A DNA stretch of 64,000 nt from a virus, in IMG/VR virus record IMGVR_UViG_3300030098_004191, positions 1-64,000 of that record. The stretch is one strand, 5' to 3'. Position numbers and translations under genes: made by a program. How positions within the stretch are numbered: position 1 is the first letter of the stretch; the number at the start of each line of letters is the position of its first letter. Below the pieces are notes generated by a model. It was not told where the DNA came from and made no database searches. It saw only the letters and a program-made list of their open reading frames with translations. This document shows, piece after piece, positions 39,320 to 42,057 of the stretch.

Positions 39320-39817
39320 TTACCTCATGTATAAGTATCCACCTGCCCATCCGCAGTTTTGTGGATTAAGTACATACTCACGCTCTTTAATCACTCTCAT
39401 ATCATATCTTACATACTTTGCTGGAGACTTCCATGATGCTGCCTTGTAAATCTCTCCTGTTTTCTTATCAACAAAAGCATGAACACTTCCATCACGATAC
39501 TCATTTCTATCTTGGAATGTATCATAATCCTGTTGGATGATCTTATAATACTTCTTACCATTCTGTATTCTAAATCTCATCAACTTAGCAGTTCCATTAT
39601 CCATTGCATCTAACTGATCCTGAGCATACTTGGATAGTTCTTTCTTACTATCATCACCATTGAAGTATGCACTGTTTCTTTCAATCATTCTTCTGTGATA
39701 CAACTTGTAGTTCTCTGCAAGTGATTCACATAATTGCTCTGTCCACTCCAACACTCTTGTTTCAAGAGTTTTTGTCTCATACTCAGCACTTGTAAGTGTT
39801 GTTGTTTGAAATGCCAT
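39320..39817 (-). CDS. Conserved cyanophage early hypothetical protein
   Basis: GKKYYKI..SVHAFVDKKTGEIYKAASWKSPAK..WAGGYLY. Confidence 0.8.
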   Translation of the reverse strand: MAFQTTTLTSAEYETKTLETRVLEWTEQLCESLAENYKLYHRRMIERNSAYFNGDDSKKELSKYAQDQLDAMDNGTAKLMRFRIQNGKKYYKIIQQDYDTFQDRNEYRDGSVHAFVDKKTGEIYKAASWKSPAKYVRYDMRVIKEREYVLNPQNCGWAGGYLYMR

Positions 39818-39900
39818 AAATGCTCCCTTGATTGTTTACTCTTATATTATAGCAGTAAAAAACCCTCTGTGAAGAGGGCTTGTACCACTTATTCAAGTGT

Positions 39901-40014
39901 CTATAGATCGGTTCCTCCTGTCTCTACTACCTCTACAATGTCCTCAAGAACTGCTAGGATCTCATTTCCATTGTTAGTAGTGTCCAAAAGGAATTCTGCG
40001 AAATTAGGTGACAT
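39901..40014 (-). CDS. Small acidic peptide (37 aa)
   Basis: MSPNFAEFLLDTTNNGNEILAVLEDIVEVVETGGTDL; stop abuts the next element. Confidence 0.5.
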   Translation of the reverse strand: MSPNFAEFLLDTTNNGNEILAVLEDIVEVVETGGTDL

Positions 40015-40037
40015 GACTAAATTAGTGTCGGGTTTAC

Positions 40038-40250
40038 AAAAAAAGTATTGAGAGAGTGGGGCATCGACATAGGTTTCACCTATATGCCCAAATTTACCCT
40101 ATAGGAATCGCTTACACCTGAACCCCTACTAACACAACTCCTAACCAAAAATGGATGTATGTTGGTTTACAAGGACTTACAACAATAAGAGCGAATCGTT
40201 GATGTACGCCTTGTGCTTTTGGGTATAGGAACCACTTATCTCTCAACTTC
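40038..40250 (-). ncRNA. Putative ~210-nt multi-stem structured RNA
   Basis: No credible ORF; 13-bp closing helix, several internal hairpins, possible loop-loop pairing, promoter element upstream and U-tract downstream. Confidence 0.7.
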
Positions 40251-40299
40251 TATAGTATAGCAGTTTTACGTCATGCTTCAAGGACGGATGTTACAGTTC

Positions 40300-40734
40300 T
40301 TAAGCTGGCACACCAGATGGAATTTCCTTCGGAACTACGTTAGTCTGAAGAACCTCTGTGAAATCCTCATTATACTTCTGATCTATGGCAAAACATTCCC
40401 ACTGATGATCTAATGTAAAGATGTAAACAAATTCTGCATCATTAGCAGGATTCTCTACATAATCATCAAAGTTTAGATCCAAACGTGGTTCAGTATTGTC
40501 TCCTCTGTCATTATAATATTGAACATGAGGTTCTACCTCATTTCTATCCCAATCTGTATCAGAATCACAGCATGAAATGTCTCCACCATCAAGTAACTCT
40601 GCAACCTTCTCTCTTGTGTTAAACTTTGCATTTAAAGTAACACCTAGCCATTGAGGATAACCATCCCAATGATGATACACAGATAGAATAGCACCATCCG
40701 CAAGTTGTAATCCAATCCTTGATCTTGTTGCCAT
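40300..40734 (-). CDS. Conserved phage hypothetical protein
   Basis: MATRSRIG..SVYHHWDGYP..L..GGDIS..Y..RG..EFVYIF. Confidence 0.8.
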   Translation of the reverse strand: MATRSRIGLQLADGAILSVYHHWDGYPQWLGVTLNAKFNTREKVAELLDGGDISCCDSDTDWDRNEVEPHVQYYNDRGDNTEPRLDLNFDDYVENPANDAEFVYIFTLDHQWECFAIDQKYNEDFTEVLQTNVVPKEIPSGVPA

Positions 40735-41062
40735 TTAAAAAAAGGGGGTTAAAAAACACGTGGGATGTTAGTTCTTTCTTCGGTTGCGAACCGAGAGGCA
40801 CATCCATCTCCTCGTTTTTGTGTGTGGGACTTACAACTTCAAAACTGTCTTTTCAGATGTCTAGGACATCAGCAGTACAAGAGGTCTCCAAACATAAAGA
40901 GCAGTTTTCCACAGAATGAATCAAAGATCATCTGATTGTTGCTCACCCCTGCCTTGCGTTTGCCCAATGGTGAGAGAAACAAAAAACGGAGACAGTGCAT
41001 TACTCTTTCGGTCATGTGTCTGCTTCTGAGTCAGACTAGAAAGAAACCGTCTTTGTTTCCCA
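40735..41062 (-). ncRNA. Putative ~320-nt three-domain structured RNA (or tandem RNAs)
   Basis: No credible ORF; 15-bp, 13-bp and several shorter helices; 8-nt long-range complementarity; promoter element upstream, U-tracts downstream. Confidence 0.7.
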
Positions 41063-41070
41063 TGTGCTTA

Positions 41071-42057
41071 TTATAGTGCATCAAGCAATGGATTCCACTC
41101 AACCTGTGACTCTTTCTCAAGTGGCACAAGCCCCACTAGCGATTTGTTGAATAATGCTCTACCATCATCATTCAGATCAAATAGTATGTAGTTTCTACCA
41201 TTCAGTATGGCAGATCTACCTACTGTTCCACTACCAGCACAAGGATCTAATACTGTTGATCCTTCATTACTAAACATGTTCACAATCCTATTCAACAGTG
41301 ATATAGGTTTCTGTGTAGCATAATCTAACTTCTCTATACCTTGAATCTGTTTAATATCAGTCCATACATCCTTAACAGGAATACCATCCATTTCATCAAA
41401 ATACTTCTTGACTCTTGGAATACCTGTCTTTGGTGAATATTCAAGTCTATTATCTTCATCTAACATTATCATTCTTTCTTTTGATATATGCCATTGAAGA
41501 TTATTACCCTTCCATGTATATCTTAAGTTAGGTCTTGATACTACATTAGGTTGTCTATTAACTAATGCACTCGTTTGATATTTCTTATTACGATATGGAC
41601 AAGTCTTAGCTTTCTTAATAGTTTCAGGATCATATTCTTTATGTTCAGGATTGTAAATTGATTCTTTACCTTTCTGATAAACAATTATACTATCATGGTG
41701 ACGTTGTAATTGTTTCTTAGACTTGTGATTCCCACCTGAAACCCATACTATCTCGTTCTTAAATCTATTCTCACCAAATATATCATCTAGTACAATTCTA
41801 ATGTGGTGAGATACTTTTGGTTCAACATGTACTACGATATTACCAACATCACTCAACACTCTATAACATTCTAGTAGTAATGGTCTTATCAATAATTCCC
41901 TATAATCACTACTAGATTTAAACTTGTCATCAAAGTGATAAAAGTCTCTTCCAGTACAATAGGGTGGATCAACATAAATGAGATCCACCGAATTAGAATC
42001 TACTTGCTTAAGTAGTTCTCTACTGTCACCTATTCTATACTCGTTTAGCATTTTCAA
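41071..42057 (-). CDS. DNA methyltransferase, N6-A/N4-C beta class
   Basis: DLIYVDPPY, FKNEIVW, YATQKP, VLDPCAGSGT. Confidence 0.92.
   Translation of the reverse strand: MKMLNEYRIGDSRELLKQVDSNSVDLIYVDPPYCTGRDFYHFDDKFKSSSDYRELLIRPLLLECYRVLSDVGNIVVHVEPKVSHHIRIVLDDIFGENRFKNEIVWVSGGNHKSKKQLQRHHDSIIVYQKGKESIYNPEHKEYDPETIKKAKTCPYRNKKYQTSALVNRQPNVVSRPNLRYTWKGNNLQWHISKERMIMLDEDNRLEYSPKTGIPRVKKYFDEMDGIPVKDVWTDIKQIQGIEKLDYATQKPISLLNRIVNMFSNEGSTVLDPCAGSGTVGRSAILNGRNYILFDLNDDGRALFNKSLVGLVPLEKESQVEWNPLLDAL

Follow-up and report, generated by a model that had tools for sequence, protein, structure and literature searches.

T4-like cyanophages are among the most abundant viruses of the ocean, and few of their non-coding RNAs have been catalogued: CfrI, PhotoRC-II, manA, wcaG, glnA, and abiF. 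Of these, manA (RF01745), wcaG (RF01761), and PhotoRC-II (RF01717) were described as RNA motifs of T4-like cyanophages by Weinberg et al. 2010 (PMC2864571), and abiF RNA (RF03085) has been reported in cyanophage S-CREM1 (PMC9964418). T4-type phages also shuffle modules at short conserved motifs, the promoter early stem-loops (PeSLs) (PMC2839356, PMC4122927); one of these two papers does not mention cyanophages. Here, we analyze a stretch of 64,000 nucleotides (positions 1 to 64,000 of IMG/VR record IMGVR_UViG_3300030098_004191; hereafter the window), which lies within an 85.9-kb contig from a T4-type, P-SSM2-like cyanomyovirus. Two gene-free gaps in the window flank the gene of a 144-aa protein (T4-GC66; PSSM2_070 in P-SSM2; phrog_1987), and the RNAs of these gaps share an 11-mer, GGACTTACAAC. 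With moderate confidence, we read the 11-mer as the 3' half of a motif that closes exchangeable RNA hairpins (cassettes); more tentatively, we suggest that it is a docking site. That the closing motif is a real RNA module, a strand-specific and sequence-fixed arrangement of helix, bulge, and loop that is reused by unrelated exchangeable hairpins, is very probable from the sequence comparisons below. Closing-motif cassettes have no prior description in the literature searched or in Rfam; our analysis contributes the closing motif common to them, the way it pairs, and the observation that its boundaries are those of exchange.

The closing motif and its pairing

The two exact copies of GGACTTACAAC are located on the plus strand at 40173-40183 and 40827-40837, as originally predicted, and an exact-match search finds no third copy in the 64-kb window or in the 85.9-kb contig. 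The genes around the motif are on the minus strand; therefore, the RNA form of the 11-mer is GUUGUAAGUCC. When the two segments (231 and 336 nt) are dinucleotide-shuffled, a common 11-mer arises in 1.5% of 5000 trials. The sharing on its own (p ~0.015) is suggestive, not decisive.

The original prediction placed the 11-mer on the 3' strand of a helix-internal loop-helix facing GGC, and direct reading together with a descriptor scan bears this out in both RNAs. The closing helix of copy 1 is ACAAGGCG...GUAAGUCCUUGU (40214-40169) and that of copy 2 is UGGGCA...GUAAGUCCCA (40966-40825), and each copy lies opposite a 5' GGC. The predicted extent of 11 nt holds in part: the N-UAAGUCC core is conserved, but the leading GUU is not conserved in other carriers. 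In the window, GUU belongs to the inner helix of each RNA itself; elsewhere, CCU-GUAAGUCC, UUAU-GUAAGUCC, and GUU-AUAAGUCC are found. We refer to the cassette closed by copy 1 as E38 and to that closed by copy 2 as type II.

Judged from the carriers, the conserved unit is two-sided, 5'-N-G-G-C-R ... N-U-A-A-G-U-C-C-N'-3'. In the predicted pairing, the partner of GG is CC and that of C is the G of UAAG, so that a single U is bulged; R is positioned opposite N-U-A-A in a 1x4 internal loop, and N and N' would extend the helix into the surrounding RNA. The family descriptor combines a 3' N-UAAGUCC with a 5' GGC-R located 20-200 nt upstream on the same strand, with flanks that continue the helix. 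Both window copies have this form.

The unselected count of GTAAGTCC is based on 80 GC66 loci (234 kb), which were fetched via the GC66 protein. In these loci, GTAAGTCC occurs 33 times on the sense strand and 3 times on the antisense strand, with about 2 per strand expected. A GGC-A or GGC-G lies 20-140 nt upstream of nearly all sense copies, and the flanks lengthen the helix. Thus the 11-mer occurs twice in the contig, and its core recurs in related phages, as a count proposed in the original prediction was meant to establish. The remaining GTAAGTCC matches in the whole P-SSM2, S-SSM7, and MED4-213 genomes are in coding-like stretches and have no GGC-R partner, indicating that the motif is local to the early region and is not a genome-wide signal. 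A loose descriptor (GC-R ... TAAGTC) was discarded as too noisy, because its 207 sense and 65 antisense matches are mostly coding.

Covariation is observed in T1, a 54-nt cassette. The T1 alignment comprises 66 distinct copies from at least 120 viral contigs, and pairs were counted for a structure that we specified. Of the alignment cells, 94% are paired, compared with 87% after shuffling and 44-49% with partners shifted by one column. The inner helices have 17 and 21 double changes. Pair 3:58 occurs as AU, GU, GC, and UA, and pair 4:57 changes from GC to AU (6), UA (2), and CG (1). Pair 6:54 changes from CG to UA once (L131), which supports a C-G pair between GGC and UAAG, with the U left bulged. 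In addition, T1 has one invariant U:G pair and many G.U variants. Such pairs are A.C on the other strand, so the fold exists on the sense strand only, which favors an RNA over a DNA cruciform.

GCA and UAAGUC, which are outside the T1 search pattern, are 97-100% conserved, and the adjoining outer positions vary freely. Before UAAG, T1 has G, U, or C, whereas E38 has A or G; the bulged U is sometimes A. In E38 and type II, the window's own classes, the closing pairs are invariant and the outer N:N' pairs alone differ between contexts. By analogy, copy 1 probably pairs GG with CC and C with the G of UAAG, with the U bulged. Single-sequence folding of both gaps gives weak z-scores (-1.9 and -0.5) and is uninformative.

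Cassette classes, exchange, and nesting

In marine T4-like cyanophages, the closing motif shuts a superfamily of self-folding hairpin cassettes, ~22 to 140 nt in length, with unrelated interiors. The same core with the same 5' partner is present in >100 contigs, on one strand, and ~12-15 unrelated interior classes are found under it. These include T1, E38, type II, and the P-SSM2 downstream unit; further interior types are those of L052, L064, L065, L070, L076, L080, L195, L222, L227, L230, L171, and L206. The cassettes lie in an early region with few genes, bounded by the methylase (GC65) and DUF7717 (GC68) genes. They reside singly, in tandem with 12-15-nt linkers (e.g. L013, L024, L064, and L005), or nested in loops of other structured RNAs. 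Two of the holders are a structured RNA in the gap of copy 1 (RNA1 scaffold), which has an insert site at one loop, and a leader stem in the gap of copy 2 (module A; coordinates in the table).

The cassettes change place between these sites. T1 has ~60 distinct flank pairs, which by reading amount to ~20 kinds of site, among them the inside of the leader stem, a third RNA, and free-standing tandem positions. In the GUCUG hairpin loop of module A, T1 is closed as AGCA..GUAAGUCU; in the insert site of the RNA1 scaffold, it is closed as CGCA..UUAAGUCG. E38 occupies the same kinds of site. It is present in 24 viral contigs and 3 isolates, in at least five contexts including leader stems, the RNA1 insert site, and terminator-like stems, and the copies in S-SSM7, S-SSM6a, and MED4-213 are 95-97% identical with unrelated flanks. 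Between the identical flanks AGACATCA and TGTAAATC, three contigs have E38 and two have T1, indicating that the boundaries of the exchanged segment are the closing motif itself. Different phages have different cassettes at each of three places: in the leader stem, at the insert site of RNA1, and upstream of a further hairpin (module C). The RNA1 insert is 28-216 nt in relatives, and in the window it consists of E38 and a second hairpin. One RNA-library contig has type II at the RNA1 insert site (joint 40161 to 40827).

Type II is found in 20 loci, upstream or downstream of GC66 (downstream, e.g. L024, L026, L013, and L028). In some type II copies, a UUAAGUC unit is nested inside. In L118 (1928-2078) and L059 (~1195-1290), this inner unit is GCAAGGCAGGGGUGAG...CUCUUUAAGUCG, and the window has UUUAUGUUUGG at the same place; the inner nested cassette of the window copy thus appears to be degenerate. 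T1 is found in only two isolates, P-SSM2 and P-SSM5, in which it and another closing-motif cassette flank GC66. The T1 pattern has no match in 185,579 one-per-species prokaryote genomes, which gives no evident host origin.

Two further arrangements were observed. In L065, L070, L076, and L080 (~1240-1500), an early promoter of another type (..AAAGUGUCCCUAUAGUGUAC) is followed directly by GGGCA..AUAAGUCCC units, which are as short as 17-22 nt, and next by a second conserved RNA, AGAUGGUG..CCACCGAGCAAGGCAAUGUAGCG..GAUAAGACCUUGCUC, which contains a closing-motif-like GGCA/AUAAG(A/U)CC. In L233, L234, L241, and L173, E38 has a GUGU/ACAC extension with UUUUUU behind it; therefore, the cassette may serve some phages as an intrinsic terminator hairpin as well.

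Explanations for the shared ends

The inner two pairs, the UAA, and the bulged U are near-fixed, while the flanks covary freely, a pattern that most likely marks a sequence-specific docking site. Sequence-specific RNA-binding proteins or tertiary receptors read features of this kind, in which unpaired adenines and a bulged base stay constant next to constant G-C pairs. We tentatively suggest that the closing motif could be a common docking site for one trans-acting factor. The factor would be a single phage or host protein that reads the closing motif sequence-specifically, and it would be recruited to, or would stabilize or process, a variety of cassette RNAs produced early in infection.

Several observations weigh against this reading. 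The docking factor and its binding are hypothetical. All cassette classes could descend from one ancestor and merely have retained its ends. Sequences within a class are very similar (the mean identity of T1 is 90%), so recent spread may account for some of the conservation. For type II, RNAalifold finds no covariation among the 11 copies, which are too similar, and the inner pairing that it gives differs from the AAC/GUU pairing of the original prediction; the type II interior is probably multi-branched. A stricter descriptor (GTAAGTCC, GGC-R partner, and helices) has 159 sense and 11 antisense matches in a data set partly chosen with the T1 and E38 patterns, and the unbiased count is 33:3. 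Both gaps are present in metatranscriptome assemblies from four studies, and the summed contig depth is highest at the scaffold core (40035-40128), but these data are assembled contigs, from which strand, ends, and true abundance are not derivable. In run X15, for example, the summed depth is 5287 at 40082-40128 and 12-88 over most of the GC66 gene, a difference that is inflated on segments common to many phages. Since modules shared by many phages draw contigs, we use the depth as presence in RNA libraries alone.

Near-identical E38 and T1 copies with unrelated flanks across phage genera, boundaries located exactly at GGC and GUCC, nesting, and precise insertion into the loops of other elements would suit a process at the DNA level. 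The ends would then be joints or recognition sequences of cassette exchange or of a mobile element (site-specific, or like a miniature inverted-repeat transposable element), with an incidental RNA fold, and module shuffling at PeSLs in T4-type phages (PMC2839356, PMC4122927) is a precedent. We regard this as unlikely, because strand-specific G.U pairs, one of them invariant, would be A.C mismatches on the opposite strand, and the closing helix is kept by compensatory changes. In addition, comparison of filled and empty sites reveals neither target-site duplication nor terminal inverted repeat, the ends, with 4 and 8 nt, fall short of the length needed for homologous recombination, and no recombinase or transposase is encoded among the recurrent cassette neighbors of 64 loci. 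If the motif instead served structure only, without a trans factor, it would insulate the folding of the cassette or make an intramolecular tertiary contact (A-platform- or receptor-like). Such a clamp fits the constant position of the motif at the cassette base, where it would insulate the insert from the host helix, and unpaired adenines beside a G-C pair are typical of tertiary-contact motifs. Stable pairs would suffice for a clamp, yet the sequence of GG:CC, C:G, UAA, and the bulged U is constant from one unrelated interior to the next, and cassettes of 22-38 nt have no other docking partner; we consider the clamp doubtful. RNase III sites of phage early transcripts have a helix-internal loop-helix geometry, which the closing motif resembles. 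This likeness, the short linkers of tandem cassettes, and the very uneven RNA-library contig depth along the locus could be explained by a signal at which an endoribonuclease (RNase III or E of the host, or an enzyme of the phage) cuts tandem or nested cassettes from the early primary transcript and so releases them as separate stable small RNAs. However, excision of loop-nested cassettes would destroy the scaffold RNA, and the contigs carry no read-level ends, making processing an improbable role for the motif.

The original prediction took the motif as a common protein-binding or tertiary module, with both RNAs in one system that possibly includes the 144-aa protein; the motif would then be a binding site of that protein. 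In the window and in P-SSM2, motif copies are present on both sides of the gene. To score the linkage, cassettes were searched first and the distance to GC66 was recorded after. About half of the copies (40 of T1 and 10 of E38) have GC66 on their own strand at a distance of up to 700 nt, which greatly exceeds the random expectation for one gene in ~250, but GC66 is missing from the surrounding 1.5 kb or more of 34 T1 and 9 E38 copies, and 2 T1 and 1 E38 copies have it beyond 1.5 kb. Conversely, only ~25 of the 80 GC66 loci contain GTAAGTCC, and about two thirds lack it. Five isolates in which GC66 lies in tight gene rows (S-SSM4, P-RSM1, S-BM3, S-PM2, and S-SM2) have no motif within 1.5 kb of it, and in S-SSM7 the cassette is 6 kb away. 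Co-occurrence across genomes is thus a partial linkage. The commonest cassette neighbor by neighbor-gene clustering is DUF7717 (GC68), found at 32 of 64 loci compared with 24 of 64 for GC66, which makes the GC66 linkage look like shared residence in a plastic early region. The GC66 protein has no Pfam domain, no PDB sequence match, and no recognizable RNA-binding fold, and its AlphaFold model (predicted local distance difference test score 77) has no convincing fold match (Foldseek E above 0.4; best VIA-align Z 3.8). Matches to an aminoacyl-tRNA synthetase anticodon domain and a Brix-like domain in the structure search are at noise level and were set aside. The linkage is real but positional: both are residents of one plastic early region. 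A role of the motif as the operator of GC66 is very unlikely, and a dedicated system with the 144-aa protein is not borne out. What stands of the one-system claim is that both RNAs belong to one family of elements sharing a selected RNA module, on the evidence of the many unrelated interiors closed by it, the helix covariation in T1, and the 33:3 strand bias. Coincidence between two AT-rich non-coding stretches would be conceivable from the shuffle test alone, given the many implicit comparisons of a 64-kb scan, but >100 contigs with one strand, the same partner, unrelated interiors, and covariation refute it, and we give it practically no weight.

Returning to the docking reading, the closing motif links at least 12 otherwise unrelated, strongly conserved hairpins that share early promoters, presence in metatranscriptomes, and swapping and nesting as building blocks. 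A common motif reduces many orphan RNAs to one testable question, namely its recognizer. It also provides a simple descriptor for annotating cassettes in cyanophage genomes and viromes, where they are at present unannotated gaps. Speculatively, cyanomyoviruses may keep a library of aptamer- or decoy-like cassettes tagged with one closing motif, such that a single protein loads, protects, and deploys any of them. If so, new cassettes would be pluggable into any scaffold RNA, an RNA counterpart of domain shuffling, and could be used in early infection for host takeover or counter-defense. In a stronger variant, the closing motif could also be the signal for cassette movement between genomes.

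Modules and genes of the locus

A BLAST comparison of the gaps with the 80 loci reveals that both window RNAs are composites of separately conserved modules that shift place among phages; only one module of each composite carries the motif. Coordinates are given in the table.

Features of the window locus (positions of the 64,000-nt window)
Feature	Position	Strand	Evidence or remark
Core of motif copy 1, GUAAGUCC	40173..40180	-	Exact match; all E38 copies have G/A-UAAGUCC; the 11-mer reaches 40183
GGCG, 5' partner of copy 1	40207..40210	-	Direct reading, descriptor scan, analogy with T1 covariation
E38 cassette, 38-nt hairpin in the P2 loop of the RNA1 scaffold	40173..40210	-	
RNA1 scaffold, structured RNA; its ends pair, and its insert site is variable	40038..40250	-	Covarying helices, 14 distinct relatives
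Core of motif copy 2, GUAAGUCC	40827..40834	-	Exact match; invariant in 11 type II copies; the 11-mer reaches 40837
GGGCA, 5' partner of copy 2	40961..40965	-	Direct reading; RNAalifold pairs UGGG with CCCA
Type II cassette (module B), 140 nt, closed by GGGCA...GUAAGUCCC	40826..40965	-	90-94% conserved separately
Module A, leader stem GGGAAACAAAGACGG / CCGUUUUUUGUUUCUC with inner hairpins; transcript start, with promoter	40973..41061	-	
Module C, hairpin GGAUGU...ACAUCC followed by a U-run	40751..40819	-	Just upstream of the 144-aa gene
144-aa gene, T4-GC66 / phrog_1987	40300..40734	-	Frequent, not obligate, cassette neighbor

The E38 helix is lengthened by ACAA/UUGU to 40169-40214. Its holder, the RNA1 scaffold, is preceded by a promoter-like site at 40281-40254; a second promoter-like site is at 39873-39846. 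The scaffold core (40038-40135 and 40222-40250, minus strand) is a strongly covarying RNA that is itself uncatalogued. Its long-range helix occurs as CCUAUA:UAUAGG, CUACUG:CAGUAG, CUACG:CGUAG, and CUCUAG:CUAGAG in different phages.

In relatives, E38 or T1 cassettes lie inside the stem of module A or inside the loop of its GUCUG hairpin. The leader stem GGGAAACAAA../..UUUGUUUCUC (40973-41061 in the window; 1165-1269 in L081; also in L117, L208, L120, and L236-L248) starts directly after the -10 box. Its contents are E38, T1, or a larger two-hairpin interior depending on the phage, which makes the stem an all-purpose holder at the 5' ends of early transcripts.

Module C is outside the motif, yet it is the usual right-hand neighbor of closing-motif cassettes. 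It has a GAGGAG followed by an AUG, which opens a 62-aa frame (40619-40807, minus strand) overlapping GC66 out of frame. The covariation of its hairpin in relatives suggests an RNA structure rather than coding. A terminator-like hairpin with a U-run precedes GC66 at 40735-40760 (minus strand), and no promoter-like site belongs to GC66 itself; its expression may come from read-through that starts at the promoter of the RNA in the gap of copy 2.

On the other side, a 37-aa open reading frame (MSPNFAEFLL..., 39901-40014, minus strand), which is below the cut-off of the open reading frame list, is homologous to PSSM2_071 (T4-GC67) and to an annotated P-SSM7 gene. GC67 is near the cassettes at 19 of 64 loci. 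No gene accompanies the cassettes constantly across the 64 loci, and none of the cassette neighbors checked is toxin-like.

Comparison with known systems

Covariance models of Rfam 15 give no match at the gathering score in the 64-kb window. With E values up to 10, positions 39700-41200 have two chance-level matches to unrelated families; with E values up to 1, nine relative loci carrying T1, E38, and other classes have none. The models of manA, wcaG, PhotoRC-II, glnA, and abiF are thus without a match at the window locus (E up to 10) and at the nine relative loci (E up to 1). ARAGORN finds no tRNA or transfer-messenger RNA gene in the window. Like manA, wcaG, and PhotoRC-II, the cassettes are structured RNAs in the non-coding DNA of cyanophages and marine metagenomes that are known from comparative genomics only (PMC2864571). 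Those RNAs, however, are single elements of 5' untranslated regions linked to given gene classes, whereas here one motif is common to exchangeable, nestable hairpins.

Type III toxin-antitoxin arrays (ToxI; abiF) resemble the cassettes in that phages carry them as rows of small, structured RNA units whose boundaries are conserved, but the interiors of the cassettes differ and are not identical repeats, and the abiF model has no match. Four other candidates were dropped by reading: a CRISPR repeat or RNA anti-CRISPR mimic (the halves of the motif pair across the 'spacer', and the interiors are conserved), an integron attC site (there is no core-site pattern), a CsrA-type GGA loop (the GGA is inside a covarying helix), and an anticodon-arm mimic.

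The T4 translational repressor RegA has aaAAUUGUUAUGUAA as its SELEX consensus, and its sites are unstructured, A/U-rich, and located over start codons (PMC3014915). The 3' strand of E38, UUAUUGUU-G/A-UAAGU, resembles this consensus, and regA-type repressors target early messages of T4-like phages. The resemblance is restricted to E38, however; T1 and type II have just UGUAA in common with the consensus. A RegA operator fits poorly, because the motif is in a covarying helix and the copies at 40173 and 40827 are off the start codon (ATG at 40734).

As in PeSLs, short motifs bound swapped modules in early hyperplastic regions, and the window too has promoter-like elements between units. PeSLs, however, join an early promoter to a terminator stem-loop and are DNA signals beside protein genes, whereas the cassette motif is inside transcripts, flanks RNA hairpins, and combines covariation of the RNA type with G.U pairs, an internal loop, and a bulge. 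It lacks -10 and -35 elements, and the promoter-like sites are elsewhere (the two sites on either side of the RNA1 scaffold), which does not fit a PeSL boundary element.

The closing motif was also compared with kink-turns, the 11-nt GAAA-tetraloop receptor, and the S8 site, by setting the definitions of these modules against a reading of the sequence. The 11-nt receptor is CCUAAG/UAUGG, and the site of ribosomal protein S8 in helix 21 of 16S rRNA contains the same UAAGUC hexamer. By this reading, none of the three fits the closing motif. A kink-turn has a three-nucleotide bulge and tandem sheared G.A/A.G pairs; here, the short strand has one purine, and there is no GA/AG tandem. The tetraloop receptor shares UAAG, but in the closing motif CC is 3' of UAAG, the opposite strand is C-R, and there is no UAUGG. 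The S8 site does not fit because the closing motif has no three-nucleotide A-N-A insert for the base triple. With these docking modules, the closing motif nevertheless shares a helix-asymmetric loop-helix architecture, invariant unpaired adenines, an extra-helical pyrimidine beside fixed G-C pairs, and reuse of one module across RNAs for protein or tertiary docking. By this analogy, we think that the closing motif works like the recurrent RNA docking modules.

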